From Cyanophora paradoxa CCMP329 (lineage: Eukaryota > Plantae > Glaucophyta): DNA of 64,000 bases. The notes beneath the pieces were generated by a model, which worked only from the letters and a program-made list of their open reading frames with translations, was not told the origin of the DNA and did not search any database. The position numbers and the translations under genes were made by a program. The stretch spans positions 1 to 64,000 of the forward strand of contig QPMI01000578.1 of the NCBI GenBank assembly GCA_004431415.1, given 5' to 3'. Shown one piece after another: positions 1 through 22,369 of this stretch (positions within the stretch are counted from its first letter, which is position 1; each line of letters starts with the position of its first letter).

Positions 1-150
1 ATAGGTGGCTATGTTTACCATAGTGGTGAACATGCAGAATTCATTCAGATAATGACAGAAACCTGGTGATAAGGGAACTCACAGTTGAGTTTAAAGATTA
101 CTTTGTGAACTGATTGATATGAATGGAATCGTAATTTTTTCAGTTGGAGT

Positions 151-1703
151 TTATCGAATAAAGGCACCTGTAAAGTCAACTCTCATTGTGGAGCATTCAC
201 ATACACAAGGGGATAAATGCGAATATATTTAATTCTGAGAGAAAACCTATGTAAAAAGCATCCTTGATGCTGAGAGGAAATCCACTCAATAGAGCCACAT
301 CACCTGAGTTTGTGAGCATTGTTAATGTTCTCACAGACATATATTTTGTTTTGCCCATCTGATCGAATAAAAGACCAGTTGATCCCATCAGTGGATGTTG
401 CCACATTGAAAGTCTTAATAAAGCATTGGTGTCCCCTGAACCATAGGCAATAACAGAGGAGAGTTCGAAAGTATATGGGAAAGCAACTTGAAGGTATTCA
501 GTGGGGGTTTTCCCATATCTGCTCAGGAGCATAGGCTCCAGCTTCCAGCCAAATGCTGAAGGTCTAGCCATGAAAGGCTCTTTACCAGTCACAGAGGATG
601 AGGCAGTGAAGCATCATCTGCAAGCTGATACCAATTAGCATCCAAAGGTGGTGATGTAGTGAGAGTGGATGAAATGTAAGCCTTTGAAGGGTTCTTTAGT
701 TCATAGTTTGCTACTAGTAGGCTGCAAAGCTTATTGATTCATATCATTGTTTGCTGCAATGTAGGTTTCTGTGAAAGAAAGCATATCTGGGATTTTAGAA
801 GTGTCATCAAGGGAGCTAACTATATGGTTTGGAAGAGGGACCGATAGCCTATAGTATCTACCATAATCTTGATCATAGTTGTAGGTAACAACTCCTCCAT
901 CTTATCAAGGGCAGAAAGCTCACTTGCAGCCATGAGCATGTTAATCAATGGGCTTCCATCTGTTGAGGCAATCCATGAGAGAATTCCCCAGCTGTTCACA
1001 GTCTCATAAGCATAACCCACATAATCAGACTCTAAATGTGGGTCCACCTCACCACAAGAGATACTTATTACTATTATATCATCATCATCACTGTAAATCT
1101 TCTTTGCATGGCTGTAACCACACACACTGGGATTATTGTTTCCCGAAATGGCACCATCAATGAGACAGACAAATACTCCCCGATTGAAATCAACAATGCT
1201 TACAGGAGAGAAATATGTAGGAGCAGCAGAAGTAGCCCTAGCAGCAATCTTACAAGGCATAAAGTTGTAGTTGTTGTCATTTGTGATAAATATTGGTTTC
1301 ATATTCTGAGTATCAAAGGATGTAATCACAATGTCCTTTAGGGAATCCTGTATTAGTGATTCACCAGTAACTGAATTAATTGCAGTCTCCAAGGGTCCCA
1401 CATCATATTTTGTATTAAAAAGGGCATTTTCGATGATATTTCGAGGATTGCGAAAATCAAGGGCAGTTGAGTTAGGTAAATATTGTGTAAATCGTTTGCT
1501 GTCAGTTTAGGTTCACCTGGTTTATCAGGATGCCTGATATTCAAACCTATTGCAATGATCCCACCAGTGGAAGTTCCACTTACAAGATCCACAAGATCGA
1601 TTACTCTTCTGCCAGTTCGATTTTCGATTTCTTTTAGCAGCCTGGTTATGATAATGCCCCTTGCACCCCCGCCAGAAAGACTTAAAACGACCTTGAGAGG
1701 CAT
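151..1703 (-). pseudogene. Patatin-like phospholipase fused to C-terminal F5/8 type C (discoidin) domain; several frameshifts
   Basis: ORF 1353-1703 has LSLSGGGARG and GTSTG; ORF 820-1401 has ATSAAPTYF, DGA and VISISCG. A shifted frame gives SSLDDTS. Further down: EYLQVAF...SSVIAYG, IKTFNVATSTDGINWSF, KYIRIYP and MRVDFTG before TAA at 151-153, which are discoidin-domain hallmarks. Breaks may be assembly indels. Confidence 0.8.
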
Positions 1704-1746
1704 CTTTTACTTATCAAGAATTTTATAAATCCATATAGTAAAAGCC
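1704..1746. promoter_or_regulatory. 43-bp divergent intergenic region with inverted GTAAAAG motifs (candidate bidirectional viral promoter)
   Basis: CTTTTAC at 1704-1710 directly precedes the patatin ATG (minus strand) and GTAAAAG at 1738-1744 precedes the fibre ATG. The same motif recurs before the ATGs at 8329 and 9198. Confidence 0.5.
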
Positions 1747-4700
1747 ATGAGCTTCAATTACCCACCCAATCTAGAAACCATTCAAGATGATAATGCAAGC
1801 AGCACCAAGCATGTGAACTTTGATAATATTAAAGTAAAGGGTTCAGTTTCGATTGACCACAGCTCTGATAATTCATCAAAGACTCAATCAAGGGAGCATG
1901 CTTTATCTGTGAATCAAACCGATCCAGATAAAGAGGAGGTCAGTGTTGCTTTTAGTTTGGGTAATGTGAAAGCAAACCAAGTGGCAGAGATCAAAGCAAC
2001 AAGAAGGAGACCTAGGAAACTAAAAACCAGTGGCACTCACCCAGATATACCTTCCAGGTTCGATAGTGGTCGATTGATTTTCAATGTTCAAGATGAGCAG
2101 GCAAACAGAACACAGCTTTGCGAATTTACAATGAGGGCAGCACTGCAAAAGCTGAGGTCCCCCAAGTATTGCAAGTGGGTCCCATTGCCAACACAAATCA
2201 GGTCTCCTACACAAATGATGTCTACCCAAAGGATATTACATATGACTTTGCAAGGAATGAGCCTTTTGGGTCTTTACTCCAAAAGATGTCCATCAAAAAA
2301 AGCCATCAATTACAATCAACAGTAGCCCCAGTCAACCAGTAGCAATCCATTTACATCCTGATTTAGTCGAAATGGATAGGCACCTTTTGCCTTTGTATAG
2401 CAATGTGAAAGACCTTGGAATTCGAACCAGGCAATGGCGAAATATCCATGGCAGTAATGTGTATGCAAATGGTGAGAAGCTTGTAAGTGAGAAGACCATA
2501 AGAGAGATCTTTGAGTATTATGGACCTGTCCCAGTTCCCTTCCCTCTTCCATGGGATCCACCGGATTTAACACCAAAGAAGCAGCCTGGAAGAGAATACA
2601 CAGCAACTGAAGATGTAGCCTTTGGGCAGCATATTGTTAGTTGGGAGCAAGTTCGCAATAAACGATAATTGAACCCAGAAAGCAAATAGATGAGCAGTAT
2701 TTACCTCCTGAAGTCGATATTTTAGAGCTTGATGAATATCAATTCGTTCCAGATGAGGAGGAGTATTTACCAGATGGTTTTGACCCACAAGAATATGAAT
2801 ATGATCAGTATGACCCAATGAGGAGGAGATACTACCAGATGGCTTAGATCCTCAAGAGTATGAGTATGAGCAGAACTATGAACCTGATGAGGAGTATTTA
2901 CCAGATGGTCATGATCCACCAGTTGTTGACTATGAGCAACCTTATGAACCCCATGAGGAATTATTACCAGATGGATTTCGACCTGAGATCTGGGAGTTCT
3001 TTCCTGATTATGAACAAATTAATAATAAACCTGCAAAGTATCCCCCAGAGGATCACAATCATGATTGGGATGAGATCTTAGGCAAACCTCAAAAGTATCC
3101 ACCAGAGGATCACAGGCATGATTGGGGTGAAATTGATGGGATACCTACTGAGTTCCCACCAAGCAAACATGAACATATTTGGGATGAGATCAATGACCAA
3201 CCAGAATTTGCAAAGGTAGAGCCTCTTGATAACTTGGGGGTTTCTCTTTACCAGACTTGCAATGTCCCTGAAAGAATCTTTTTGAATGAACACTATGTAC
3301 ATGTGAATGGGACACTTGCGAATTCAGCTATGAGAGGACCACTTCATATTAGGACATTACCAGGCTCTTTTGAAACCCCACCACCACCAGGAGCAACCAT
3401 ACCAAATATCTTTGTGTCAAGCTACATGGAGGCTGACATTCCCACAGATACATTCAGAGTCCCAACAGACCCAGCAACCTACCAAAATTACAACTCTGCT
3501 ATACAGGTTCATGTAGCAGATGTAAGCAGCTTAGATGGCTCAAGACCAATGATAGTATTCAGTCGAGATAAATATTCCTACATTCCCATAGTGGGAACTG
3601 CAAATGATAACTATGGGAGGGCAGAGCTTGCATGGATTAAAACAGATTATGGTGGGGTTCTGGAAGCTAATCAGAGGATGGCTGCAAAAAACATACACAA
3701 TGAGAACATTTCGAGAGTGGTCACAGAGGATTACCTTACTGCAGTAATCCTTGTTAATTTTGTAACCCTTGCTATGCTTGATCAATTTATTACAGAAGCT
3801 GAACTTGCAGCAGAACTATCCAAATATCTCCCTCTTGTGGGTGGGACAATCACAGGAAACCTCACAGTTAATAGTAATATTTACAGCAGCAATATAGTGA
3901 CCAGCAACCTAAAAGTAAATGGAATCCTCACAATTGGCTCTTGCAATTTCAATACCATGAATCAGGTTTACGAAGAATGGTATGATGTCCCGCCAAGCTT
4001 TGATCCAGCATCAAATATCTCGAACTGCATTTTTGCTTGGAAGGCATCAGGAGTACCAGGTCAATCAGCAATGTATACAACTATAGTAAGCAGAGTCCCG
4101 AATTCAGTTGTTCCAGACTTGTTTATCTACGGAGCCAGTTCCTATTACACCAATCCCGAAATCAACAACCAAGTTAGTGTTTCAAGCCCAACAGGCACTT
4201 TTTATGCATATACCTCTGCTACAAGAACTATTGATTTCTCAAATGGGCTTACATTTTTCTTTGTGGGAAAATATCATCCAACTGCCTCTTCTATGCAAGT
4301 TCATTTGAGACTTTACAGAAGCACCTTTCCATCACGATATTGTTATTATGGGGCAACATCTTCTACTGCTATTGGAATGAACCAGTTTACTATTAATGGA
4401 GTATCCCAAAACCGCCCAGTTATTACGGTTCCTTCTTTAATAAATACATGGTATTACACTGACCAAACAATTACTTCCAGCAGCTACACAGTCGGGTTAA
4501 ATGGAGTAGATATTCAAACACTTGTAGGAACAAATTATCTACCAGATAATACTGTCAATCATTTCGGATTTGGTAATATTGTGAATGGTGGTATTTCCGA
4601 GTTGATTGTTTTCAATAGGGCTTTGACAACTTCTGAAAAGAATGCTGTGAGGTATTACATTCAACAAAAATATGGATTCACTCATACCCAGACTCTGAAT

Positions 4701-7700
4701 ATTTACAGAGGATTAAAAATAACCTCACCTGATACTGTAATAGATTACCTTACAGTTACAAGCAATGCAAATTTACCACATCATCCAACCTCTAATGTGG
4801 TTCAAGGTTGGATTCAAAATCACACTCACACAAAAGCCCAGATTACAGATTTTGCCCATACTCACACAAAAGATCAGATCACAGATTTCGCCCACACTCA
4901 TTTATGGGCAGACCTCACAGACAAACCGCTGACTTTTGCTCCTTCTGCGCATACTCACACAAAGTCAGAGATAACAGACTTTGCACACACTCATTTATGG
5001 GCAGACCTCACCGATAAACCATTAACGTTTGCTCCTTCTGCGCACACTCACACAAAGTCTCAAATTACAGATTTCGCCCATTCTCATACGAAGTCAGAGA
5101 TAACAGATTTCGCCCACACTCATTTATGGGCAGACCTCACTGATAAACCGCTCACGTTTACTCCTTCTGCGCACACTCACACAAAGTCTCAAATAACAGA
5201 TTTCGCCCATACTCATTTATGGGCAGACCTCACTGATAAACCGCTCACGTTTACTCCTTCTGCGCACACTCACACGAAGTCTCAAATTACAGATTTCGCC
5301 CATTCTCACACAAAGTCAGAGATAACAGATTTTGCACACACCCATTTATGGGCAGATCTCACAGACAAACCGCTCACGTTTACTCCTTCTGCGCACACTC
5401 ACACAAAGTCTCAAATTACAGATTTCGCCCATTCTCACACAAAGTCAGAGATTACAGATTTTGCACACACCCATTTATGGGCAGATCTCACAGACAAACC
5501 GCTCACGTTTACTCCTTCTGCGCACACTCACACAAAGTCTCAAATTACAGATTTCGCCCATTCTCATACAAAGTCAGAGATAACAGACTTTGCCCACACT
5601 CATTTATGGAATGACATCACAGACAAACCATCAACGTTTGCCCCTTCTGCGCACACTCATGATTACTTGCCTCTCACAGGAGGAACAATTTCCTCAAATC
5701 TTACGATTTCATCCAACTTGAATGTTATAGGAAAAATTCAAATTGGAGACAAAAATACAAACATTGATGTATACTATGACGCACCCTATTATCCTGTTAC
5801 TTCTAATACAGACCCCGCTTTTGCCATACCAGATTGCCTCTTAACAATAAGATTAGATGTTGTCCCTGTCGGCATAAACATCAGTCACGCCTTTATTGCA
5901 AATAGAGCAACTACGGCAATTCCCTTTATTTCCGGGGTAACCTTCCCATGGTCAGGATACAACACAATAACTCAATTGAGATCTGATTACAATAACCGAA
6001 ACATTGCCCAACAACCTACTTATTCATATACAAGCCGGGAATTTGGAATGCCGTATCCCGTAACTGTGGATTGGTCAAAAGGTATCACCATCTTCTTTGC
6101 AGGTTCTTATAGATTTTGGGGACCGTGGGTAGATCTCTTAAATTTTAGTTCACCAGATGGAACTAATAAAGTATCCTTTGGGACAACAGGTAGCAGTATG
6201 GGTATACATTCTTATACAAGCAATGGTGTGACTTACCCAGCAGCACACTTAAATTATCCCACATCGTATTCTGAGTTGTCGCCGAATCATTGGGACTTTA
6301 CAGTTTCTTCAAATGTCTGCACTTTCGGATTTAACGGACAAGATTTAGGCACAGTCATTACAGAAGTGGATTATCTTCCACCTTCCACTTTTAGTAGGAT
6401 GGGTGTTGCCTATTTCATTACGGCAGTAGGGGAATATATTATATTCAACAGAGCATTGACATTTGATGAAAGGCAAAAAGTGAGATATTATATGCAAGAT
6501 TATTTTGGCTTTCCAAAAAAGCAAACAATCGTTATTCCTGATAATCTACGCATTTCTGCTGAAAATGTTCATATTAGAAATTTAATCGTTTCTTCAAATG
6601 CAAGCATTCCAAACTATACCACATCAAATGTGGTTCAAGGTTGGATACAGAACCACACACCTGCGTGGTCAAATATCACAGACAAACCGTTAACGTTTGC
6701 TCCTGATGTTCATACTCACACAAAAGACCAAATATCAGACTTTTCCCATTCTCATTTATGGAATGACATCACAGACAAACCGTTAACCTTTGCTCCTGCT
6801 GCTCACTCTCATTTATGGGCGGACATCACAGACAAACCATTAACATTTGCACCTGCTGCTCACTCTCATTTATGGGCGGACATCACAGACAAACCATTAA
6901 CATTTGCACCTGCTGCTCATACTCATGATTGGATAGGTATTACAAATAAACCTTTGCTGTTTCCGCCCGATGCTCATACACACCCTTGGAGTAGTATAAC
7001 AGAAAAACCATTAACATTTCCGGCAACAGCTCACACTCATTTATGGAATGATATTACAGACAAACCAACATTTGCAACTGTTGCGACAACCGGAAATTAT
7101 GATGATTTAATTAACAAGCCAACATACACAGCGCCCACAAATTTTGACGCTACAAGTATTATTTCCACAGATCGCACAGGTGATTGGAGAAATTACAACG
7201 GAGGAATATTGACAGGGGACACAAATACTTGGGCGAACACATGGGCTGCTTCTGATGAAGATTGTAGTAGCTGTAAAATGTATTGGAATGTCCCAACAGG
7301 AATGAAATCTTGTTATATCTATTATGCTTGTCATTACAATTGTAGATACTTTGATGTGGTGGGAATTTATCCTCCAACAACTGTGTATACATATTTACGA
7401 GTAAATGCCTATTCTACTGCAATCGACCCATCAAAGGAATTCAAACAGTATGTTGGAATAAATTGTGAAGGACTAACCAAAGTTGGTGTTCATGGACAGA
7501 AAGGAAGAATTTATTTACCCGGTCCAATTGCTGTTGGATGGAGCAAAAACCCTGCTGTAACTTCACACAGTGGTTACTGTCATTGGGATAATATCTTCGG
7601 AAAACCAACAGCTTCAACATCTGTCGGTCCTCACTCACACAGCAAAGCAGATATCACAGATTTTGCACATACTCACACAAAGGCAAATATTACAGATTTT

Positions 7701-8279
7701 GCCCATACTCACACTAAATCAGAAATCTCAGATTTGCCTTCTTTTGATCCATTCACAGCCAATACGATCACAGCAAATAATACTATGTATGTAGGATCGG
7801 GTTCAATAGTAACTCCTGCATCACCCACAAACCAAGAAACATGGTTCTTCCACAATTCCGCAAACTTTTATGATAAAACACTGCTCTGTCGTGGAAATGC
7901 TTATGCAAGAGCATTTTATGCGATGAATGCAGGAACCACAAACACAATCAGCCAAGTTCCATCTTGGTATGATATAGAAAGACGTTTCAAATCAGGAAAA
8001 TATCAAGCCACAAGTGGTGTTATAAGCGCGGGTCAAACAACACAGCATGCATATGTTTTATATTGGGACCCACCTTTTTACACTCAGACACCTGTTGTAA
8101 ATGCCACACTTCAAGGAACTCCTGCAACAAACCCAGGGGATGTAGATTTTAGAATTGGAATCTCAAACTCCACAGCTAACTACACAACAATCTATGTGAC
8201 ATTCATAGCATCCCCTACTCTATCTGAAAGTCGAAGTATTACTTGCACAATCCATTGGACAGCATATGGAATCCCATAA
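1747..8279 (+). CDS. Giant fibre / receptor-binding-like virion protein (HxH tail-fibre repeats, two LamG/ConA-like domains, C-terminal H-type-lectin-like domain); 5' part frameshifted
   Basis: The frame of ORF 3234-8279 stays open upstream to ~2820 (EEILPDGLDPQEYE...KYPPEDHNHDWDEI). Fragments 1747-2325, 2118-2342 and 2372-2668 join by single-base shifts. Motifs: LLPLYSNVKDLGIRTRQWRNIH, YLPLxGGTI, HTHTKSQITDFA / HTHLWADLTDKPLTFAPSA repeats, two ExIxFNRALTxxExxxVRYY modules, terminal TPVVNAT...IHWTAYG. Confidence 0.8.
4820..5660 (+). repeat. Coding tandem array of 36-bp (12 aa) and 57-bp (19 aa) His-rich units within the fibre gene
   Basis: Near-identical units CACACTCACACAAAGTCTCAAATTACAGATTTCGCC and CATTTATGGGCAGACCTCAC...AAACCGCTCACGTTTACTCCTTCTGCG. 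A second, more diverged array lies at ~6650-7070 and a short third at ~7630-7730. Confidence 0.9.
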
Positions 8280-8328
8280 TAAATGCATATTTCGCATTAT
8301 TTTTCTTTCCTTCTTAGTAAAAGAAGCA

Positions 8329-9174
8329 ATGGGTGAATATAATCGAGTTCAACTGCCTATATATTCCCTTGGATCCCCTGCAATGCATTTTCGCCAGCAT
8401 GAAGTAAATGATGAGGTTCGTGGTTTAGAATCCACAGAGAGACCCAATTCCAATGGTAACTCCTTTGATAAAAATTCGATTATTCGAGTAAAAGAGCTGA
8501 GAGCTGATAAGAATTCTGGTGTGGTTAAAACAACTCGACTTCTTGTCACCAATGCTAACTTCTTCCAGCCTACAAATGGAGGTCCTGATGCTTACAGTGT
8601 TGCCCTGAAAGCCCTAGATTTCGACAAGAATACTGCTGCTGTTACTGTGAGATCAGGAGGAGCATTTATTGGGGGTGGCTGTCGAATTTCAGGTCAGCTT
8701 TCATCCTCAATTTCGTATAATGATGTCCCAGATACTCTAGAGCAAAATGTAGAAGACCCCCAACGAATTCGATTATATACTCCTGTTGCACAGCAGCCAT
8801 TAATTCAATTTTACATTGGATATACTGTTACTCTTGAAAACTCGGAATTAATTGAAGGAACCAAAAGAGTACTGAGAGGTCTTGCGATTCCATCTGCAAT
8901 GCTTTCCCTTTGTAGAGCCAACAACAATCAAGTAGGTCATAAATACTATTTCAATGTTCAGGGATATAATCATTTCGGTTATGGCTACTGTGTTTATAAT
9001 AATAATTTCACCTTTGACTTGTTTGTTACAGATATTGGGTTATATACTATAACTCTTATCGGTTTGAGAACAGATATAGCCGCTGTATCAGCTCTTAGAG
9101 GTGTAACTCCTGATACTCTTTCAGTTACAGGGTTTTACATGGAGCCAGATGTAATTGATGACCCAACCCCATAA
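8329..9174 (+). CDS. Hypothetical viral protein, fibre-accessory/structural-like (paralogue 1)
   Basis: Intact ORF; ATG 8329 preferred because it does not overlap the fibre gene and follows GTAAAAG. Shares ELRxDKNxGxVKTTxLLVTNANF and SGGAxIGxGxR with the next gene. Confidence 0.7.
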   Translation: MGEYNRVQLPIYSLGSPAMHFRQHEVNDEVRGLESTERPNSNGNSFDKNSIIRVKELRADKNSGVVKTTRLLVTNANFFQPTNGGPDAYSVALKALDFDKNTAAVTVRSGGAFIGGGCRISGQLSSSISYNDVPDTLEQNVEDPQRIRLYTPVAQQPLIQFYIGYTVTLENSELIEGTKRVLRGLAIPSAMLSLCRANNNQVGHKYYFNVQGYNHFGYGYCVYNNNFTFDLFVTDIGLYTITLIGLRTDIAAVSALRGVTPDTLSVTGFYMEPDVIDDPTP

Positions 9175-9197
9175 AAGATATATCCCTTTAATGTAAA

Positions 9198-10030
9198 ATG
9201 GCTGAGCAACCCCCACTTGAACGAATTATTACACCTCAACTATCATTAGCTGCCCCAGCAAACCATGTTTTACAGCATGCTACCTTTGATGATGTAGAGG
9301 GTCTCCAATCCACAGAGGTCCAACCTACAATGAACACCTTTGGTTCCACCACAAACTGAGATTACAGGAACTCAGATGTGATAAAAATAATGGAATAGTT
9401 AAGACAACTAAGCTACTTGTCACAAATGCAAACTTTTCTGCTCATTATGGAGACCCAGATAGCTATGGAGATCCTCTGTCTACTTATTCTTTTGAATCTA
9501 GGTCGGGAGCTATTAACTGCAAATCGGGGGGAGCATATATTGGGGATGGTCTTAGGGTTGGTGGGGCTGTTGGAGCGCCTTTATTTGTGAATGATCAACC
9601 CAATCCTATTGATCCCAATACAAGAATTCGAACCTATGTCCCCAGCATGAATGCCCCATACATTATAAAGATATTCCCCATTGTTGTAAATGAACAAACA
9701 GCAGTAGTAGACTCTCTTGTTGAAATTGGTGACCACTACAAGGTAGTTGTGGATATCCCACCAGATGTATATGCTGTATGTCAAGTAGAGGGTGGAACTC
9801 CTAATTTTGCAGTTGTGATCACCCCATATGATAATTTTGGTATTGCTTATCATGGAGTCAATTTCGGTTTGGAAGACTATCAGTTTCTGGTGAGAGCCAC
9901 CAAGTTTGGTATCTACAAGTGTGTATTATATGCTGAGAGAACCGATTTTATTGCAAGGCAGAATACCTATGCTGAGTATTATGGCACAAATCGATATTTC
10001 CCCATTTTTGGACAGGATACTGCTCCATAA
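9198..10030 (+). CDS. Hypothetical viral protein (paralogue 2), frameshifted near 9350-9390
   Basis: MAEQPPLERIITPQL...VEGLQSTE...LQELRCDK...VKTTKLLVTNANF...KSGGAYIGDGLRVGG runs into ORF 9587-10030 (ends YAERTD...) and aligns by eye with 8329-9174. Confidence 0.68.
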
Positions 10031-10052
10031 GAATATTGGTTATATATAGAGT

Positions 10053-10325
10053 ATGGATAGTAAAACAAAAAAGTTTATTGATGCTGCTATGACAGTTCAT
10101 GGTAAAGATAAATTCGATTACAGTGAGACACATTACATCAAAGCTCAAGAGAAAGTATCTGTGAGATGTTTGCAGTGTAATAAGGTGATCCTTACCTATC
10201 CCTTTAATCATGTGAAGGGATCAGGTTGCAGGGACTGTAACAAAAGAAAGAGTCAAGCACACAGGAAAAGAGCTACTTCATCAATCAGAGTAGAGTATAG
10301 GGATATTTGCATTAGGTTTGACTAG
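10053..10325 (+). CDS. DUF723-like Zn-ribbon protein (type associated with homing endonucleases of large DNA viruses and phages)
   Basis: KFIDAAMTVHGKDKFDYSETHY...KVSVRCLQC...PFNHVKGSGCRDC pattern, basic C-terminus, no nuclease domain. Confidence 0.7.
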   Translation: MDSKTKKFIDAAMTVHGKDKFDYSETHYIKAQEKVSVRCLQCNKVILTYPFNHVKGSGCRDCNKRKSQAHRKRATSSIRVEYRDICIRFD

Positions 10326-10348
10326 TTAATTTTTCTAAGGTATTCTTA

Positions 10349-10747
10349 ATGGAGACTAAATACAGAGGCTTTCATGTTATGCTTGATTACAAGGCTAAAT
10401 CAGCTATAGCAACAGGTTATGAGCATGTTAGCTTCCTAGGTAATTGGATTATGGGAACCCTTGAACAAGCTATACTGAGACAAGGTATTAGGATTGTTCA
10501 TAAACACTGTGAGATATTTGATGGCAAAGTATCACCTCCTGGGTTTGCATTAGTTCTGCTCTTAGATGAAAGCCATTGCACAGCTCATTGTTATTCCAAT
10601 GAAGGCATGTTAGCAATTGATATATTCAGTTGTGGTAAAGAAGCTCAGCATAAAACACAATCTGTTGCAGATGAGATCGATAAAACAATGAATTTCCTCA
10701 CATTTGAGAAGACTGAGAGACATAAACATGATAGATTCCCGTTTTGA
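10349..10747 (+). CDS. speD: Prokaryote-type pyruvoyl-dependent S-adenosylmethionine decarboxylase proenzyme (SpeD/SpeH family)
   Basis: GFHVMLD, F...PPGFALVLLLDESHCTAHCY..EGMLAIDIFSCG: ESH self-cleavage site and DxFxCG motif; 132 aa. Confidence 0.88.
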   Translation: METKYRGFHVMLDYKAKSAIATGYEHVSFLGNWIMGTLEQAILRQGIRIVHKHCEIFDGKVSPPGFALVLLLDESHCTAHCYSNEGMLAIDIFSCGKEAQHKTQSVADEIDKTMNFLTFEKTERHKHDRFPF

Positions 10748-11179
10748 TGGGTTTCTATAATGAATTTCTAAAGGATTCCTTTGTTTTCTAACAATAACAT
10801 TGATAAGCTACTGTAACAAAAAGATATAATATATCCTTTCACTACAGTAGCTTTATACAATGATTATTTTCCGGATTCCGGACATTTTTTACGATAGAAT
10901 TCTATTTTAAGTAATTGGAATAATGTTCGATTTCATTACAGTAAAATTCAACATTCCCCTAGATTCCCCCTATTACCCTATTATTTAAGTGGACTCAAGG
11001 TTGACTCATATTAATCGTAAAAGTAGTAAAAGTATATGGATTTTGTTACGAATTCAATGCAAGGGTTGACTAAGTGGGTTGAGTTGACTCAAATTTCACA
11101 GGAAATAACAATGAATCAGAGTATAAATGCATTTTTTGAATCAACTACACCAACTAACACTGAGATTTTAACAATATAT

Positions 11180-11477
11180 GAGATCCTTACTGAATATGGT
11201 AAGTGTCACAGGTGTCACAGGTCTATCCCAAAGTTTCTCCTATAAAGAGTAAATTTTCAAAAGTTTGGGATGGACCTGTGACACCTGTGACACTCGATTA
11301 TTTAATTTGTTTATTCAATTAGAAATACATAGATAAGATTATTACTGAGTTTTCATTATAAAAGAGATCCTTACTGAATATGGTATGTGTCACAGGTGTC
11401 ACAGGTCTATCCCAAAGTTTCTCCTATAAAGAGTGAATTTCCAAAAGTTTGGGATGGACCTGTGACACCTGTGACAC
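11180..11477. repeat. Two direct copies (11180-11293, 11364-11477; period 184 bp) of a palindromic origin-like unit
   Basis: Each copy has GTGTCACAGGTGTCACAGGTCTATCCCAAA, an AT-rich spacer, then TTTGGGATGGACCTGTGACACCTGTGACAC: a 30-bp stem with one mismatch. Confidence 0.92.
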
Positions 11478-11730
11478 CCAATTATTCATTAAATTCTTAA
11501 GGGACCCCCTTAGACTCAATAAAACATGATAAAAACATATCAATTTCATGTATAATTACGATTGGATTCAATAAGAGATCTATTTGTTTAATTAAACAAA
11601 TGAATCTCATATAGATATTAATCGAGTTAAGCGATATGTTTCCGATTAAATGAATTAAATTTAATTAAATTTAATCGAGAAAGTACATGAATATAATATC
11701 GATTAAATCAATTAACTTTTAGACCAATCA

Positions 11731-12011
11731 CACATAGTAAAATGCGGAGTTTTAACCAGAGGCAAGATCTAATTGAGATTCAGTTATATTATTCGGAAAT
11801 ATATAGAGATTATCGATAGACTCAGTAAGACTAATCGGAAAATAAGAGAAATTTACGATAAAATATCGAAAAGAATACAAAATAATCGAAATAATTGAAT
11901 ATTCGATAAGATATACACAGATTATCGATTGATTGAAATAGAATATACGAGATATATCAACAAAATCAATTAAGATAAGCCGAGGGTTAAAACTCCGCAT
12001 TTTACTATGTG
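11731..12011. repeat. Terminal foldback: perfect 27-bp inverted repeat enclosing an A-rich imperfect palindrome
   Basis: CACATAGTAAAATGCGGAGTTTTAACC (11731-11757) and GGTTAAAACTCCGCATTTTACTATGTG (11985-12011). Inner arms keep register with matches GGC, TAATTGA, TCG, ATCGATA, GTA and ATCG. Confidence 0.92.
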
Positions 12012-13544
12012 TTACGGTGTGGCCCTACACCTTCATCTAACCCTGCGAGATTTAACAGGCCGTCCAGGCGGCCAGTCGGTCAAGAACGTGGATCAGCTCA
12101 AGTACCTGTTCCCCGACCAGGACAACGACCTGAACGGCGCCGAGAGCCCGATGCTCGAGTGGACTGACATGGATCTGAGCCTCTACGGCTTCAAGGACGC
12201 GATCATCTACTGGCCCAAGGTGTCCTACCACGGCGGGGCAGGCCAGAAAGCTGACAGTAAGCTTGAGGCCATCTCTTGATCGTGATTCTTTTCGGAAAAG
12301 GTCTAATGCGGCCCGCGCGCGCCTTGCAGAGTACAACATCACCCTCTTCCGTTACATTCGCGGCGCGAACGGCTACGCCCCCGACAAGTACCAGAACTTC
12401 TACGTACGTTCTGATTCGGTGTAGCTCCGTCGCTGCCTGCGATCAAGTTCTCACAAGTTCCGTTAGGTGGCCGGCACCGTCGACGGCGACGTGAACTTTG
12501 CGTACGCGACCAACATCCAGCCCTCGCACTGCGTACGTATACGCCCCATGCCTAGGCCTTTCCATACTATAGGCTATAGATATATATTGCTAGTGGCGCC
12601 CGAACCCTCGGCGATAAACTTATATGAGTCGTATTAGTACTAGTGATGCCCTATCCCTCCCTGACTTTCCTTGCCAGTACGGGATGGGGCTCAAGCTCTG
12701 CAACTCGGTCGGCTGCTGCTCCCCCAGCAGCAATCCGCTCGAGAGCAGCGTCCCCTTCACCACGGAAGACGGCAAAGTCCTGGCCCCCATCGGTGACTCC
12801 ACCTGGTTCCAGCCGTGTACGCCCGGCCCATCCTCCCGCGCTCCTTGCTCTCCCGCTTAAGCTTGGCACTGACGCCTCCACGTCGACCGCAGCCCAGAAC
12901 TACGCGAACAAGAACTCGCGGGAGCCGACCGACCGCGGGTACTGCGTGGCCATCAAGCCCATCGGCGTCGTCACCAAGTCGCTCGTCGGCGCCGTCGACT
13001 TCAGCGGTGTCCCGGCCGAGGCCGCCACCACTACCGGTACCGCCGGCTCGGCCGCCCGCTCCGCCTCGACCGCCTCGTCCTCGGGCACCTCCAACACACT
13101 CCTCGCCGTCGCCATCGGTTCGCGCCGGCCTCTCAGATATCGTTTAACACTGCATTAGTAATCCGTGCCCGTTTCTTACCGCCCCGTCTCCTCGCAGCCG
13201 TCCCCGTCGGCATTGCGGGCCTCGCCATCGGCGCCGTGCTCGCCGCGATGGTCATCACCCGCAACCAGGTCCGCGCCGCGACCATGGCCGCCGTTAGCGC
13301 CGGCAGCCGCGGCCAGACCCTGGTGCGCGATTTCGATCCGTGCACGTGTTAACGTTTCTCCTCGTTCTTTTCTGAACGCCCCCCGCAGAACATCCAACCG
13401 GCCTCGAACGCCTCGTTCGACCCGCACCCGCGCCCGGCCTCAAATGTCATGCTCATGGGCTCCGAGGAGTCGGCCCACACGCATGGGCACGAGTCCGCCA
13501 ACATGCGGCACCGCGAGGCGGCCGCCCCCGAGTTCGACGTGTAA
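12012..13544 (+). pseudogene. 3' half of a host FN3-family type I membrane protein gene interrupted by the viral element
   Basis: Exon-by-exon paralogue of ~25051-26403 (GGQSVKxVDQLK, YGFKDAxxYWPK, YNITLFRYIRGANGYAPDKYQ, TM AVPVGIAGLAIGAVLAAMVIT, end PEFDV*). Begins 5 nt before a GT donor. Confidence 0.88.
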
Positions 13545-14049
13545 ACCGCGCGCGCCCGCAATTCTTGAAGCAAGTAGCCTTTGACAGTTGACCTATAGCT
13601 ATTAGAACGATCGCGTAGCGATCAAATTTTAGGCCGCGCGCGTAGTTCTGCGTTAGTTTTCTAGATCGCGATCGGCACGCCCAGCTGCCGGCAGGCAGCT
13701 CACGTCCTGTCACGGTCCTGATCAGGCCGCTCATGATCGATATCAGCACTGCACTCTCTGTCAACAATCGATCTAATCATAACAATCATGTGTCTGCAGT
13801 TTATAATCAGAAGCTCTACATGTAGCAGAGTATATGTCCATTGCTCGCAGCCCTAGTTGCAATCTCTTAATTATAAAACGGGGCCCTACCCCGCCTACGG
13901 TACCGGTACTAGTGCTCGGATTGAATACAACATGAACAGTGGGACGTCGACTTGCCTGGGCATCTCCCAGGCCTAGGTCTATCATAGTATCGTTGCTGGC
14001 ATGGTAGGGCCGGGACCTACTCTAATAAATGCTTACTAACTATAGCCGG

Positions 14050-14299
14050 CCGGGTCCGGGGATTCCGTGGGGGGGAGGGGGTCGGGTGGGGTGGATTATA
14101 ATTAAAGGGGCGGGGGGGTCCGGTGGGGAGGGGGGGGGGGGGGGGGGGCGGGGCGGGAGGGGGCGAGGGGGGCCGGGGTTGGCTTAAGCTTGGACAGGTC
14201 CAGGCGCCGGCCTAGGGTGAGGGGGGTCATGGGCACGGCCTGGAGGGGGGTCGTGTGGGGGCATGCGCATGCACGGACAGCGGGCGTGGAGGGGGGGGG

Positions 14300-14330
<31 letters not shown>

Positions 14331-14520
14331 GGGGCGGGTTTGCATGGGGGTGGCCATGGGGCCGGGGAGACTGGGGAGACTTAGGGGGGGGGGGGGGGGG
14401 GGGGGGGCATCACGCAGGGTGGGGAGGGGTGGGGAGGGAAAGAGAGGGAAGGTGCGCGGGCGGGCCAAGTCTTAGGGTCAAAGAAAAAAAAGGGGTGGGG
14501 CCCCAGGGACCCCGGCCCGC
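14050..14520. repeat. G-rich low-complexity tract (poly-G runs, GA microsatellite)
   Basis: Multiple G runs longer than 10 nt and (GA)n at ~14300-14320. Confidence 0.8.
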
Positions 14521-14825
14521 CGGGCCCGGGGTCCCTGGGGCCTCGTAGGCCTGGGCCGACCGGAGGGGGAGTCGAGACGGGCTTTCAAGTTTGGGCGGGT
14601 CATTGTACTGCAGAAATATATCGATATATATCAAGCATCTGGGGGTTCGAATGACAAGAGCTCATGGAGAATGAACCCAGGCCAGGTGGACAATCTGGGG
14701 GTCCATGTGTAGCACAGCAGGGCCGGCCAGCGGCGCCGGCTCTCCGGGATCCAGAGCCTGAAATGACGTTCTCAACATCATCTGAAGGTTTTTATCTGAG
14801 TTACTAGGTCTTCGACTTGCGGATA

Positions 14826-14946
14826 AATGAATTCGCACACACCGAGACAAGTGGCTAGAGATATAACTGAGGTGTCCATCTGTGTCAAGTCGAGAGATGA
14901 GCCTACGGGACTAAGCCTTTCGGACATCGGACCGGGTGGAGCTCGG
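14826..14946. repeat. Dispersed repeat, copy 1 (probable transposable element fragment)
   Basis: AATGAATTCGCACACACCGAGACAA...GGAGCTCGG is near-identical to 58568-58688. Confidence 0.85.
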
Positions 14947-15654
14947 ATGTGGAAATAACTGGAGAAGCTACCCCGGGGATTAATTCTAGAGCTGCAGTAC
15001 AAGAAAGATCCTACGCGGGGAGGGGAGTGACTACCCAAGGACGAGGATAGAGATCAGGGGTGGACAGCGAAGTGAGCTGCAGCTGTAGCTATGCCTAGTA
15101 AGCTAGGGCCTCCGGGAAGGCGCACTATAATCTAAACCACTCTGTACACGCTAGAGTACGGCCCGCCGTGTCGCCGGCACGGCGGGCACGGGCTCAGCGG
15201 CTGGGGGCTCGCTCGTCCAGGAGCGGGCCTGATGGAGCCGCCGGGCTCAGAGTATCGGGAAAGGTGTGGTCGGGGAAGAGGGGGACGGGGGGTACGGAGT
15301 GGAAGGGCGTGGGGCGGTGGGGAGTGGCGGGAAGGGACCGGGTCGGGAGGCCGCGGTCGGGAGGAGGGAGGTTCCAGTGGCGCGTTCCGCCGGGCTTCCA
15401 GCCGCCCGCCGGCCGCCTCCCCCCCGCCGCGGGCAATGACGAGCCCCCCTCCGCGGCGGTCTGACCGCCCCGGCCTGGCTCGTGGCCGGGGCGGGTGCAG
15501 GTGGGTTCAGCGGCCGACAGACGACCTTCCGTCCGGCAGCCCGCACCACCGTCCCCTCCCTGGTGTAGCGGGGGATCAGCACAATGGGCAGAGGCGGAAG
15601 GGGTGAAGGGTGGGGTCGTGATTAGACCCCTCCTTGCACATCCTGAGACGAGCA

Positions 15655-17070
15655 GCGCGGCGCGCCTCCGGGATCCGCCCCGCCCGGCGAGCCGCGCCGC
15701 CGCCCGCGGCGCCTCCGCCCGCCCGGCGAGCCGCGCCGCCGCCCCCGCGCCTCCGCCCCGCCCTGCGAGCCGCGCCTCCGCCCCGCCCGGCGAGCCGCGC
15801 CACCGCCCGCCGCGCCTCCGCCCCGTCCCGCGAGCCGCGCCTCCGCCCGCCGCACGCCTCCGCCCCGCCCGGCGAGCCGCGCCGCCGCCCGCCGCGCCTC
15901 CGCCCCGCCCGGCGAGCCGCGCCGCCGCCCGCCGCGCCTCCGCCCCGCCCCGCGAGCCGCGCCGCCGCCCGCCGCGCCTCCGCCCCGCCCGGCGAGCCGC
16001 GCCGCCGCCCGCCGCGCCTCCGCCCCGCCCGGCGAGCCGCGCCGCCGCCCGCCGCGCCTCCGCCCCGCCCGGCGAGCCGCGCCGCCGCCTGCCGCGCCTC
16101 CGCCCCGCCCGGCGAGCCGCGCCGCCGCCCGCGGCGCCTCCGCCCCGCCCGGCGAGCCGCGCCGCCGCCCGCGGCGCCTCCGCCCCGCCCGGCAAGCCGC
16201 GCCGCCGCCCGCCGCGCCTCCGCCCCGCCCGGCGAGCCGCGCCTCCGCCCCGCCCGGCGAACCGCGCCGCCGCCCGCCGCGCCTCCGCCCCGTCCCGCGA
16301 GCCGCGCCGCCGCCCGCCGCGCGCCTCCGCCCCGCCCGGCGAACCGCGCCGCCGCCCGCCGCGCCTCCGCCCCGTCCCGCGAGCCGCGCCTCCGCCCGCC
16401 GCGCCTCCGCCCCGCCCGGCGAACCGCGCCGCCGCCCGCCGCGCGCCTCCGCCCCGCCCGGCGAGCCGCGCCGCCGCCCGCCGCGCGCCTCCGCCCCGCC
16501 CGGCGAGCCGCGCCGCCGCCCGCCGCGCGCCTCCGCCCCGCCCGGCGAGCCGCGCCGCCGCCTGCCGCGCCTCCGCCCCGCCCGGCGAGCCGCGCCTCCG
16601 CCCCGCCCGGCGAGCCGCGCCACCGCCCGCCGCGCCTCCGCCCCGTCCCGCGAGTCCCGCCGCCGCCCGCCGCGCGCCTCCGCCCTGCCCGGCGAGCCGC
16701 GCCGCCGCCTGCCGCGCCTCCGCCCCGCCCGGCGAGCCGCGCCGCCGCCCGCGGCACCTCCGCCCCGCCCGGCGAGCCGCGCCGCCGCCCGCCGCGCCTC
16801 CGCCCCGCCCGGCGAGCCGCGCCTCCGCCCCGCCCGGCGAGCCGCGCCACCGCCCGCCGCACCCTCGCCCCGCCCGGCGAGCTGCGCGCCGCCCGCCGCG
16901 CCTCCGCCCCGCCCGGCGAGCCGCGCCTCCGCCCCGCCCGGCGAGCCGCGCCACCGCCCGCCGCACCCTCGCCCCGCCCGGCGAGCTGCGCGCCGCCCGC
17001 CGCACCCTCGCCCCGCCCGGCGAGCTGCGCGCCGCTCGCCGCACCCTCGCCCCGCCCGGCGAGCCGCGCC
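15655..17070. repeat. GC-rich minisatellite, 40-bp core unit
   Basis: CGCCCCGCCCGGCGAGCCGCGCCGCCGCCCGCCGCGCCTC tandemly repeated with shortened and +2 variants. Confidence 0.93.
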
Positions 17071-18185
17071 ACAGCCTATCGCGCCCGCCCTGCCCAGCGA
17101 GTCATGTGGCCGCACGCCGCGCCGACAAGCCAAGCCGCCCTCCAAGCCAAGCCAAGCCAAGCTGCCCGCTGCGCGCCCCCGTCAAACGAGCCGCGCGCAA
17201 CCACCCCCTATGTTTTCCCGTTTGACCAACCAAACAACCGAGTCGCACCGATGCTCGCCGCGCTCCGCCCGGCCCGCCGAGGTGCGCAGACGTCGACGCG
17301 CCCCGCCGTTGCCGCAGAGCCGCGCGGCCGCGCGCGCCGCCGCGGCGCCCCAGTCCGCGCCGTTTGCCCGGCCCGTTTTGTTGTTGCATTTCAAAAGTTT
17401 GCCCCTCGCCATGGCCACCCTGTGCGCCGTACGTATACGTGGCGCACTGCGCGCGGCAGCGTGGCCCATGCTACCGGCCCGGGTAGCCGCGGCCGCGGCC
17501 GGCACCCGCCGCGGCGCCGCTCCGATCCACGGGCCGCGATAGCAAGGCCTAGTAGCTATAGGACTCCGAAGGCAAGGATCCTCACGCGGGATACAGCAAA
17601 AAGAGACGACGGCGGGGTATAATATAACGATGCCAGCCAACGGAAACAGACCGATTTGCAATTGCGAACTGGCCACTGTGGCCAGTGGCCACTGGCCAGT
17701 GGCCAGCTCGAGTGCAAATTGCCGGCTCGATCGAGCCGGGCTCGAGCCGGCACCCCTGGAGTCGCGACTCGCGAGCCGGCTCGAGCCGGCTCGCGAGCAG
17801 GCTCGATGTAATATTTGATACTGGAGAACGAGTCACTGAGTTATAATTTAGTATACGTACAGGAAAATAAGTATAGTACTTCACCAAATTAAAATGCCAC
17901 TAGCTACCTTTAATTAGCAGCTGGTAATTATAAGTCTTGCAATTGACATGTACATATGTACATGTACGTATACAGGGCTTTTGTTATGGCGGAAAGTCTA
18001 CTACCCGGACTAATATTAATAGGCTTTAGCAGGCGGGAAATATTTAGTAGATCGCCCAAGTATACGAACGTTCAATTGCAACGGTTAGATCGCCCAAGTA
18101 TACTAGTACGTACAAGCAGGGGGGGCTCCGCCCCCCCCGCACCCCCCCCGCTTGCTAGCTGGGTACAACCGTACAGGCGGTACAG

Positions 18186-18437
18186 CACAGCTCGTTTTTT
18201 TCCCCAATCGACTCGACATGCCCGTTGTATGGGCAAGGGCAGCGCTAGCCGGTGATCACGATAACTTTTCACCCGCTTTGAGCCGGCTAGTGCGCCAACG
18301 TCAGCGTGCACGTAGCCGGCAAGCTACCGGGTAGATTAGTGCTAGCCCGGTCCCAGCTAGCCGAAGAGCGATTTCATTTTAACCGGTTTTCAGCCTGTTG
18401 GGTGAACTTGGGTCGACCGGTAAAAAAACGAGCTGTG
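18186..18437. mobile_element. MITE with CACAG termini and 2-bp TSD (CACTA/CMC-like)
   Basis: TIR CACAGCTCGTTTTTTT / AAAAAAACGAGCTGTG; AG on both flanks. Confidence 0.72.
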
Positions 18438-18460
18438 AGCTATATATATATAAGTCCATG

Positions 18461-18633
18461 GATTTAAATTGACCAATCACGAAATCGCTCGAGTTTCCGA
18501 CTGGGGCTTTTTGACTCGACTCGCCGTAGTAAGCAGTTTTAACGTACCCGGCCTTATTGATTCAAATTGTCCAATCACCAAATCGCCCGAGTTCCAGACT
18601 GAAGCTTTTTGACTCGACTCGCTGTAGTAAACG
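18461..18633. repeat. Diverged direct repeat, 2 copies, period ~98 bp
   Basis: GATT(T/C)AAATTG(A/T)CCAATCAC..AAATCGC.CGAGTT..GACTG..GCTTTTTGACTCGACTCGC.GTAGTAA occurs twice. Confidence 0.7.
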
Positions 18634-19000
18634 ATTGGTGTTTTCCGCCAGCGAAAGGGTCCCCTGGGTACACGAAACCACAGTACTATGCGGGCTGGAA
18701 CCGCTTGTTTTTTTACTACTCAACAAATGAATTGTACAAATACACCATTGGGCAAGGTTTCCAGTGGCATTTTTTTGCTTCTCCAAGCTCAGACCAGCCG
18801 TAGTTCGCAGGTCCCAAATGTCAAATTTGGCAGCAAAAGGTAAGCGGCGTTTGCCGAGTTGCAATTTCCCAGCCTGGCCTGGTACTGTGGTGAAAAGGTA
18901 CTACAGTTCATTGTACTACTGTTACGTACGCCGGATTAGGCAAGGAATCACCCCTGCCGTAACATCCGGGCCAGCACATATGAGGCGTCCTCGCCGAATC

Positions 19001-19448
19001 CACAGCGGAACGGCGTTGTATGGCGCCCTATACGCTGAAGGAAAAAAGTCTTCTATGTAAATCGTTAACTTAAATCGTGTGTTCGCGTTACTGCAAAACT
19101 GGGCGAACTCGACTTGAACTTTGACGTACCCCCCTTTTGGACTTGGTCGCGGCGCCGCGCGGCGCAACGAGCTCGCTGAGCATGCATCAACCAGTGCCAC
19201 CATGCATAGAAGTTGAAGATCAATCATTGAACGCATCATAGACGCGTTGGCCGGCGGCTCCGATCCTACGTTTGGACGTTCTGTCTAACAGAAGTTCGAA
19301 CTACTTTTTTTCCAACGGCTTCCGACTTCTTCCCCCCCGTTAATTTTCCAAGTTGAATATGTTTCAAATATATATTAAGCTCTAATAGACTTGACTTGAA
19401 AAATTAAACTTGAGCGTATAGGGCGCCATACAACGCCGTTCCGCTGTG
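19001..19448. mobile_element. MITE with 36-bp perfect TIRs, CACAG termini, 3-bp TSD (CACTA/CMC-like)
   Basis: CACAGCGGAACGGCGTTGTATGGCGCCCTATACGCT (19001-19036) and its exact reverse complement (19413-19448); ATC on both flanks. Confidence 0.88.
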
Positions 19449-21093
19449 ATCGTGCTTCGGACGAAGTCCGGAATTCTCCCACGCGGGTTCGAAGCCATGT
19501 CCGTTCGCACTACCCGGGCCCTGCCGGGAGTCGAACCATGGCCCACGTGCGTTCAACGGTTTAACGGAATCCGGATTCGGAATCCGGATCCCCGGCGATT
19601 CGAATTCCCCGCGCGCTCTGCATGAGACTCGAGCTCCTCTGACAGCATCTGACTCAGGCTCTGAGTCTCTGACTCAGTGAGAATCGAACCCCGGATCCCG
19701 GATGAATTCGAATTCGAACCCCATATAAGGCTGGCCGGCTGGCCAGCCTGGCCGACCAAGCCCCGGAGTCCTAGCGCTAGCATGCGCAAGACTTGAAGAG
19801 GCTGGCCGCCAGCTGGCCGGCCAAGTTTTGGCTGGAGGCTGGCGGCCAGCCCCGGGCCATGGCCAGCAGCGGCCGAACTTTGGCGGCTTGGGCTAGCGCG
19901 ACCCCCCCGGGCCCCGGCCAGTGCCCCCGGTGCCCCGCCGGCCGAGCTCGTACAAAAAGACGGTATATATATGATCATGCCATATGCATGATGATCACTG
20001 TAGTATGATCATGATCATGATGGCCCGCAGCGCGAGCGCGAACCGCTAACGCGAACCGCCAACTTGCGGCCAACCACGTCACAGACTCATGACTCAGTGA
20101 TCACCGTGCGCGCATGCCCGGCCCTCACGGAGTCACCGTGGCACGGGACTCTAGATCTGTGACGGGACTCGGGAGTCACGTGGCCCCTCAGTGGCCTCAC
20201 CGTGACATACTATACTGTAGGAACGCTTAAATTGCCGTGGTGAAAATACAGCCGGTAGATTGCCGTAGGAACGCTTAAATGCGGCACCAAATTAATGCGT
20301 TTTGAAGTCTTTTGGCTGCATGTGGGGGGTACAAACTGCAGTTTATTAGCGTTTCAATATTAATGCGCCCCCAAATTAATGCGTTTTGACGGCAGAAAAC
20401 GTGTGAAGCGAATTCGGCAATTTAAGTCCTCGGCAATTTATAATTTAAAGACCATTCGCGATCGACAGCGCCGCGGCGATCGCGATTCGACGCGTCCCCG
20501 GATTTCGCTGAAAAATCGCGTCCCTTCGATCGATCGAAGGATAAATTTTCAAAGTTTAAAGAGGCGAGCTCGCGAAGTCGATCAATCGAATTCTCATAAT
20601 CATCATATATACACAAATTAATATTTCATATATATAATCATCCGGCCGTGTGAATTCGAACAGTTTAGCTATATATAGTTAACGTGCATGGAAATTAATC
20701 TTTGGTTTCCTTAATTTGGAAATTGGAATTTCAGCTCGAGAGTCGAGACTTTGCGAGTCCGACCGTCCGCAGCCGGGGCAAGCATATCATACAGAGGGTT
20801 TATATGGGGGACCATATGCATTGGGGGTCTAATAATATTAATTGGGCGGATCCGGAATCACGCCGCGGCGCGCCGCCGTCGACGCGCCGCCGTCGATCGA
20901 CGTCGACGCGCCGCCGGGCGCCGTCCGACGGTCGCCGGCGCCCGCCGTCGATTCGCGAGTCGGCGCCGACCGTGGGACCGTCGCCGAGTCGACCCGACGG
21001 TCCGACGGTCGAACCGTCCCGTGCCGACTCCCGGAGTCCCGGTCCTCCCGGACTCGAGCTCCCGGCCGGCCCGGCGGAGTCCCGGGTCCCGAC

Positions 21094-21599
21094 CAGTGTT
21101 GCTGAAATTTTATTATCCCAAAACGCCCTGTAAATTTTCAGTAAACTTTCGAAAACTTTCAGCAAATATTTTCACCCATACAAAGTTTACTTGCACAGCG
21201 AAAGTGACACGTTTCTCTGCAGAGAAGCCTCTAGACACGAGCGATATGTGTTAGGATGTCATCGACAACCTTTGTATTACAAGTGCACGATGTGCAGATG
21301 TATCTTTGCCGTTCTTTTCACGTTGAGGAGGGGGGTACGGTTCCTGAGAGATGCATACTCTGGTCTCTTGACACCAGCAGAGACCGCCAGAATGTGTCCA
21401 GGCCTCCATAGTCTCGTATTTCGACGGATTTGACCCTCGTTTATGGCGTGAAACGCCCCCAGAATGGCATCTTCAAGGGTACCCCCCTTGCAAATTTATT
21501 GAAAGTTTTCATTGCTCATTTTGGAGGTGAAAATTTACTGAAAATTTACATGAAAATTTTCAAGTTGAAAGTTTGGAAAGTGAAAGTTTAGCATCACTG
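21094..21599. mobile_element. Non-autonomous hAT-like element
   Basis: TIR CAGTGTTGCTGAA / TTTAGCATCACTG, subterminal TGAAAATTT repeats, exact 8-bp TSD GTCCCGAC. Confidence 0.88.
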
Positions 21600-21628
21600 G
21601 TCCCGACTCCCGACTCCCGACTCCCGAG

Positions 21629-22164: not shown

Positions 22165-22369
22165 CTCCCGAGTCCCGACTCCCGAGTCCGACCGTCCGAC
22201 CGTCGGACGGTCGGACCGTCGGACGGTCCTGCGGACCTTAAAGCCCACGCCGTGTGACGGTCTGCCCACTGCCCAGTGCCCAGTGCCCAGTGCCCACCCC
22301 TACTAGTACTTGGAGTCCCCGGACTCGCGATCGGCGGCCTCGCGATCGGAGGCTCGGACGGTCGGACTA

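Follow-up and report, generated by a model that had tools for sequence, protein, structure and literature searches.

The closest described relatives of the DNA analysed here are the endogenous Polinton-like viruses (PLVs) of glaucophyte algae, known from Cyanophora paradoxa. A lipase is encoded in 89 and an S-adenosylmethionine (AdoMet) decarboxylase in 66 of 156 such elements, fibres with phage-tail repeats and patatin-discoidin fusions have been described, and among 19 host-group rows the glaucophytes are the only group in which lipase and AdoMet decarboxylase both occur in many elements (PMC12220804). Endogenous PLVs typically differ strongly from their hosts in GC (PMC12220804). The main text of that paper, however, does not mention "CpG". 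The window examined here is a stretch of 64,000 nucleotides from C. paradoxa CCMP329 (contig QPMI01000578.1, positions 1 to 64,000). Its first 12,012 nucleotides are likely, to judge from composition and gene content, the right-hand part of an endogenous PLV whose host is a glaucophyte, for example Cyanophora. CpG has been lost from most of this element in a graded way that depends on the bases on both sides of the dinucleotide, as we discuss below.

Viral inserts in protists are known targets of DNA methylation. Integrated viruses carry host 5-methylcytosine (5mC) at CpG, a mark that silences them, in C. paradoxa and Acanthamoeba (PMC12344493), in Amoebidium (PMC11244446) and, for a punuivirus, in Chlamydomonas (10.64898/2026.10.09.758095). 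C. paradoxa has DNMT1 and DNMT3, 32% CG methylation, non-CpG methylation at background level, and methylated repeats and viral genes (PMC12344493). A trinucleotide preference exists in the Amoebidium methylome, where CGC/GCG is favoured in active genes; silenced inserts, however, are methylated there whatever the flank (PMC11244446). The accessible parts of these protist studies report methylation levels, not flank-graded CpG loss in viral sequence; the available supplement of PMC12344493 contains neither "trinucleotide" nor "flanking", the available text of PMC10120064 does not mention "CpG", and that of PMC12695648 holds no 5mC flank data for this alga. A literature search, judged from abstracts and with subscription papers, figures and preprint supplements outside its scope, found neither flank-graded CpG loss nor splice-donor avoidance in PLVs.

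The element is a multi-copy insertion of contrasting composition, with a GC content of 0.40 against 0.66 in the host DNA. Past about 12.1 kb contig depth falls to the host level, position 12012 is the last of an inverted-repeat arm, and a host exon begins at 12065; together these identify positions 1-12012 as the right end of a many-copy element. This end is sharp and has local inverted arms, and the opposite end lies beyond the window. Summed contig depth in sequencing run X1 is 13,000-30,000 in bins of the core (zones A and C in Table 1), against about 78 on single-copy host contigs. Relative to single copy, depth in runs X1 and X3 is 123-435x in the core (16 bins) and 11-49x in a lower-depth stretch of the fibre gene (six non-repeat bins). 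The comparison uses contigs from three DNA runs and excludes four bins at repeats or borders as well as four of host DNA; summed depth is a rough guide to copy number only. The 2473 contigs of run X1 that lie on the element are diverse: 828 are at least 99% identical to it, 698 are at 95-99%, 584 at 90-95% and 363 below 90%.

The proteins likewise resemble those of glaucophyte PLVs, with a lipase (PF01734), an AdoMet decarboxylase (PF02675) and a phage-tail-repeat fibre (PF12789) side by side. Genes for a capsid, packaging ATPase, polymerase or primase-helicase, and integrase or recombinase were not found among the element proteins of the 12 kb scanned, the left part lying beyond the window. 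Protein and pattern scans of viral contigs, and scans of metagenome contigs, returned no relatives with DNA context, and an Rfam search gave no matches.

Flank-dependent loss of CpG

In what follows V stands for A, C or G, and B for C, G or T. Positions 1-3900 contain 34 CG (observed/expected ratio, o/e, 0.21), of which 32 lie in TCG or CGA and 17 in TCGA; the two exceptions are CCGC at 1670 and CCGG at 2562. Positions 8280-10750 contain 28 CG, with 25 in TCG or CGA and 11 in TCGA. The original prediction had given these counts for the first region, which are exact, and had rightly described the second region as alike and the adjoining host DNA as CpG-rich (o/e 1.10 over 12031-64000). Base composition does not produce the pattern. 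Dinucleotide-preserving shuffles yield on average 15.7 VCGB and 3.5 TCGA in the first region, against 2 and 17 observed, and 13.1 and 2.7 in the second, against 3 and 11; none of 1000 shuffles per region reaches any of the four values. The pattern extends into the non-coding terminal region (10801-12012), where CG is near expectation (25 vs 27.0), VCGB is low (4 vs 11.4) and TCGA is piled up (10 vs 3.3), although the region is repetitive and its sites are therefore not independent. The presence of the pattern in non-coding sequence points to a cause acting at DNA rather than mRNA.

A preference for certain Arg or Ser codons might seem an alternative, since CGA makes up 17 of 21 CGN codons. At synonymous third positions before G, C is retained at 5 of 210 after A, C or G and at 14 of 100 after T (p=1.6e-4); before A, C or T the corresponding values are 193/477 and 66/170. 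A second scoring covered 476 synonymous sites in 1701 core codons of 11 open segments, with frameshifted pieces treated separately. Retention there is 12/51 in TCGA, 8/107 in TCGB, 8/103 in VCGA and 5/215 in VCGB, against 259/647 (about 40%) outside CpG. The odds of retaining C thus drop 2.2-fold, 8.2-fold, 7.9-fold and 28-fold, respectively. Both flanks are necessary (odds ratios 3.6, p=7e-4, and 4.5, p=1e-4), and the flank effect is nil outside CpG. Shuffles that preserve codon usage give 46.1 VCGB in the core against 5 observed, and 21.4 TCGA against 24. The choice of Arg codon itself depends on the preceding base, with CGN making up 16 of the 28 Arg codons that follow T but 4 of the 47 that follow V, and a stretch of the fibre gene with equal GC is unbiased. 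Composition or codon preference is thus hardly credible as the cause, and the bias originally seen persists after both corrections.

The original prediction described VCGB as the target and TCG and CGA as spared. VCGB is indeed hit hardest, but the loss is graded: TCGB and VCGA are about 8-fold down, and the 2.2-fold drop at TCGA indicates that loss at this site is slowed and that the site is not exempt. A model in which each strand's C is protected by its own 5' T alone was rejected, as the both-flank model fits better than the 5'-neighbour-only model (log-likelihood -106.6 vs -113.9). For the base before CG, o/e values in the element are 0.06 for ACG, 0.16 for CCG, 0.13 for GCG and 0.55 for TCG. 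TG/CA is in excess (1.29), which roughly matches the number of CG lost, and at synonymous sites the loss of CpG is accompanied by a gain of TG/CA.

The pattern holds in zones A and C and in the non-coding end, but it breaks off within the fibre gene. At about 3951-8230, 51 of 90 CG are VCGB and two are TCGA, and the flank odds ratios (0.89 and 0.62) are not significant. The non-repeat parts of this stretch are likewise unbiased (15/98 vs 8/38, p=0.45). A change-point fit places the densest block of VCGB at 4920-7200, where tandem repeats inflate the counts. The borders of the pattern lie inside the open fibre frame and coincide with the borders of the drop in depth. The simplest reading is that this part of the gene was swapped in as a module and has belonged to the core for a shorter time. 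Borders of this kind could help to recognise host-range modules that have been exchanged, and to rank them.

Host methylation as the probable cause, and competing explanations

Host CpG methylation of integrated copies, followed by flank-dependent loss over the history of the family, is the explanation that best fits the pattern, and we consider it reasonably probable. DNMT1 and DNMT3 of the host would methylate CpG in integrated copies of the element, and methylated sites would decay to TG/CA, slowest with T before and A after. The host enzyme would act more weakly on sites with T before or A after, and 5mC in TCG would deaminate least. The loss would have built up in the virus lineage as it replicated under purifying selection, rather than separately in each inserted copy, and selection for escape from silencing may have helped. 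The fibre stretch would be an exchanged module that has spent less time under methylation pressure.

Data from mammals point the right way for both flank effects. Unrepaired 5mC deamination in MBD4-knockout human cells follows the order ACG > CCG > GCG > TCG (PMC11564873), which the element parallels at its extremes, with ACG rarest and TCG commonest. For the base after CG, mammalian DNMT1 favours T, and on hemimethylated or hydroxymethylated sites it works poorly with A (PMC10359454); its activity ranges almost 100-fold across flanks (PMC7381644). The low mutation of TCG (SBS96 and SBS1 signatures) and the disfavoured A after CG thus resemble the element (PMC11564873, PMC10359454, PMC7381644), which differs in needing the model with both flanks. 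Flank preference has earlier been proposed to shape CpG content (PMC2936528). The original prediction invoked a specific antiviral methylation system of the host. Methylation of viral CpG by the host is indeed the best candidate, but an ordinary DNMT1-type preference together with the deamination order would act in the same direction. The preference of mammalian TET (A before, T after; PMC8786823) was rejected as a source: ACGT should then be spared, yet zones A and C contain none.

Differences between the element and other copies in run X1 are balanced, with 315 C>T plus G>A and 322 T>C plus A>G. Among the 40 variants listed of 1437, 24 lie in the core, of which none adds a VCGB; five of the 40 remove a CG present here and two add one. 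Balanced changes and the lack of VCGB gains in the core are expected of a family-wide equilibrium. Long frames of 1821 and 302 codons remain open, and 17 CGA codons survive in the 1701 core codons. Balanced changes, open frames and surviving CGA together argue for loss at the level of the lineage and against hypermutation copy by copy.

These observations bear on a repeat-triggered process like fungal repeat-induced point mutation (RIP), which would mutate each inserted copy, hitting the high-copy parts and sparing the low-copy ones. RIP-like hypermutation in basidiomycetes causes trinucleotide-specific CpG loss in repeats; its target is TCG, the context that is spared in the element, and the frames of the element are not riddled with stops. 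The coincidence of the pattern borders with the high-depth borders would fit such a process. Besides the open frames and surviving CGA codons, the changes between copies are not one-way, and the fibre stretch is itself repeated, at the depth given above. A RIP-like process is therefore very unlikely.

An alternative source is an enzyme, either a methyltransferase or a nuclease, encoded by the virus itself or by a helper giant virus; it would act on several short motifs (VCG, GGCC), and the PLV would have lost these motifs. GGCC is absent from 1-12012, and non-CpG methylation in C. paradoxa is at background (PMC12344493); the CpG signature is missing from host DNA; and methyltransferases occur in most PLVs, some beside endonucleases (10.64898/2026.06.19.733378). 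A C5 methyltransferase (PF00145), however, is found in none of the 156 glaucophyte elements, and an adenine methyltransferase in 10 (PMC12220804, Table S6); none of the C5 type is encoded within the 12 kb. The graded loss over half-sites, with half-protected CpG sites intermediate, is unlike the avoidance of a single cut site, and GGCC is the only motif that fits the latter. The loss of GTAC has a simpler, strand-specific cause (see below), and the fibre stretch lacks GGCC but retains VCG, so one agent is not behind both. GGCC and GTAC do not figure in the main text of a giant-virus methylome survey (PMC7253447). A viral or helper enzyme is thus an unlikely cause, and the viral methyltransferase that the original prediction offered as the other option has lost ground to the host.

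Several observations weigh against host methylation as set out above. Both the DNMT1 and the deamination evidence come from mammals, whose DNMT1 is also less active with G before CG; this predicts that GCG is spared, but in the element it is not. The flank effect leans to the coding strand (odds ratio 7.3 for T before CG and 2.2 for A after CG, on the sense strand; asymmetry p=0.026, and p=0.058 in a second test), contrary to a pure duplex model. TTG and VTG are enriched to the same degree, so the product side singles out no context. CpG methylation does not account for the absence of GGCC. VCG has not been lost from the host DNA in the window, where VCGB o/e is below 0.55 only in two overlapping poly-G windows, although most C. 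paradoxa repeats are reported to be methylated (PMC12344493); the comparison covers all host DNA in the window, regardless of repeat or methylation state. Thirteen host windows of 500 bp with less than 55% GC have a VCGB o/e of 1.10, and control for composition only. This lack of loss in host DNA is the main weakness of the explanation. Some step particular to the virus may be required, for instance selection for escape or the deamination of displaced single strands.

Should host methylation prove responsible, viral sequence alone would reveal which flanks a so far unstudied algal DNMT prefers, and the result could be checked against the existing C. paradoxa EM-seq methylome (PMC12344493). PLVs would then have been methylated in the chromosome for long enough to reshape their codons, which bears on whether their lifestyle is mainly integrated.

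Splice-donor motifs and GGCC

A second signal, which the original prediction had not described, concerns the sense strand. Counted over the coding sequence of the core and of the fibre outside its repeats, GTAC is found 3 times against 27.4 expected from 300 synonymous shuffles; by the same shuffles sense GTGC is low (2 vs 13.9) and its antisense form, GCAC, is normal (15 vs 17.2; p=0.004). Host splice donors were inferred from the alignment of two paralogues with six intron positions; 10 of the 12 donors are GTRC, and 11 of 12 have CG at +4/+5. Sense-only avoidance of GTRC, taken with these donors, suggests that the element avoids the host splice donor, and it seems to do so in the fibre stretch too. 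A single restriction site, GYRC, that would join GTAC with GTGC/GCAC was rejected, as GCAC is not depleted on the sense strand. If it reflects donor avoidance, loss of the motif would imply that transcription of the element takes place in the host nucleus, where the spliceosome can act on its transcripts. CTAA (18 vs 31.3) and GGTA (21 vs 34.5) are also low on the coding strands at 886-10744, perhaps through avoidance of branch points and donors.

The donor motif raises the possibility that selection on viral mRNA underlies the CpG rule as well, with RNA surveillance or the spliceosome penalising V-CG for its resemblance to the tail of the host donor GT-R-CG-Y. The CG in the inferred donors, the sense-strand avoidance of GTGC and the sense-strand lean of the CpG flank effect are all in its favour. 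V-CG, however, is retained at 10 of 327 sites without G[TC] upstream and at 0 of 17 with it. VCG is thus lost without the upstream half of a donor too, and donor avoidance leaves the CpG rule unaccounted for. In the fibre stretch GTRC is avoided yet VCG retained, and the pattern is present in the non-coding end. Selection on mRNA is therefore a distinctly unlikely explanation of the CpG loss, for which host methylation remains the preferred one, and GTRC avoidance is a separate signal.

GGCC is absent from 1-12012 and first occurs at 12021, whereas synonymous shuffles predict 5.9 in the core and 4.2 in the fibre stretch. CTAG is also missing from the fibre stretch, and GACG/CGTC occurs just three times in 1-12012.

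We tentatively propose, as a possible though doubtful synthesis, that this PLV family reports two host filters, distinguishable within one gene. One would be a glaucophyte DNMT nearly blind to TCGA, a weakness that the virus would exploit, with TCGA piled up in its terminal region; the other would be a spliceosome of GTRCG type that removes cryptic donors from viral sense strands. Fibre modules, once swapped, would pass the splice filter first and acquire the CpG imprint later, which would date their residence in the core.

Element genes and neighbouring host DNA

The features of the element and of the adjoining host gene are collected in Table 1. One-base frameshifts interrupt several element genes, and many aligned contigs lack them (among 12 of 149 listed); their source may be either assembly error or damage specific to this copy. 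Pieces upstream of the fibre frame, from 1747, may belong to the same gene. The paralogue pair that follows the fibre gene possibly encodes virion or fibre-base proteins. A structure model of the 8329-9171 protein (pLDDT 44.9) gave no usable fold match, with TM-scores of at most 0.26, and the Atlas contained no match above 0.80.

Table 1. Features of the element and of the host gene beside it
Feature	Position	Strand	Basis or remark
AT-rich many-copy element, right-hand part	1..12012	.	GC 0.30-0.41; GC step at ~12 kb; left part beyond window
Core zone A, flank-selective CpG loss	1..3950	.	34 CG, 2 VCGB, 17 TCGA
Weak discoidin (F5/8) match after patatin gene	300-497		PF00754 E=0.023, below cut-off
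Patatin-like phospholipase, frameshifted here	820..1703	-	PF01734 E=5.4e-11 and 2.5e-4
Fibre protein with phage-tail repeats, 1821 open codons	2814..8279	+	PF12789 E=2.2e-9; PHROG tail families
Lower-depth stretch of fibre gene, milder CpG loss	3951..8230	+	o/e ~0.53; no T/A sparing; without GTRC, GGCC
Core zone C, flank-selective CpG loss	8231..10800	.	29 CG, 3 VCGB, 12 TCGA
Two paralogous genes, second frameshifted	8329..10030	+	5 relatives at E<=0.001; second has 63% identity to P0022
Short zinc-ribbon piece of homing-endonuclease-like protein	10050..10325	+	phrog_681 E=3.2e-9, phrog_559 E=2.4e-8
S-adenosylmethionine decarboxylase	10349..10747	+	PF02675 E=5.1e-11; relatives at 41-61% identity
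Non-coding terminal region, nested inverted repeats	10801..12012	.	Arms 11730-11776 and 11966-12012
Host gene with short introns	12013..13550	+	Paralogue at 25109-26409; blastn of paralogues

Two arrays stand out in the terminal region. At 11166-11486 there are two 137-bp direct repeats, each with an inverted repeat of 34-35 bp around a 23-bp spacer; the hairpins are possible origin or promoter structures. At 11600-11930 eight TCGA lie within about 300 bp, around and between the inverted arms, and may form a putative repeated binding site that resists methylation. In run X15, perhaps an RNA run, contigs with a depth of 33-153 cover 1-686, 8860-10750 and 11450-12005, and the host gene adjoining the element has none; this is a hint at expression of some copies that falls short of evidence.

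The element ends about 50 bp upstream of a host exon, likely inside a host intron. Of the 12 host introns, 11 are 56-80 nt long; the C. paradoxa genome has 67.6% GC and a mean intron of 86 bp (PMC6704402), with which the window agrees in GC and intron size. The host genes at 12065-13550 and 23000-26409 are paralogous and likely encode a surface protein, and the first of them, with its exon just past the end of the element, may be disrupted. The window also holds a eukaryotic gene for GPI ethanolamine phosphate transferase, which at 28700-29000 has apparent GC-AG introns with GCG starts, as judged by eye.

Host DNA at 12031-64000 is rich in purine-pyrimidine palindromes, including GTAC (303 vs 105) and TCGA (320 vs 204) as well as TATA, ATAT, AATT and TGCA, an enrichment that is only partly due to intron donors. 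A 1.4-kb tandem array at 15675-17120, of 93% GC and with units of about 40 bp, has several variants in which CG became TG/CA, too few to rank contexts. A 121-bp repeat with 97.5% identity, at 14826-14946 and 58568-58688, is likely a piece of a transposon and retains its VCG sites.

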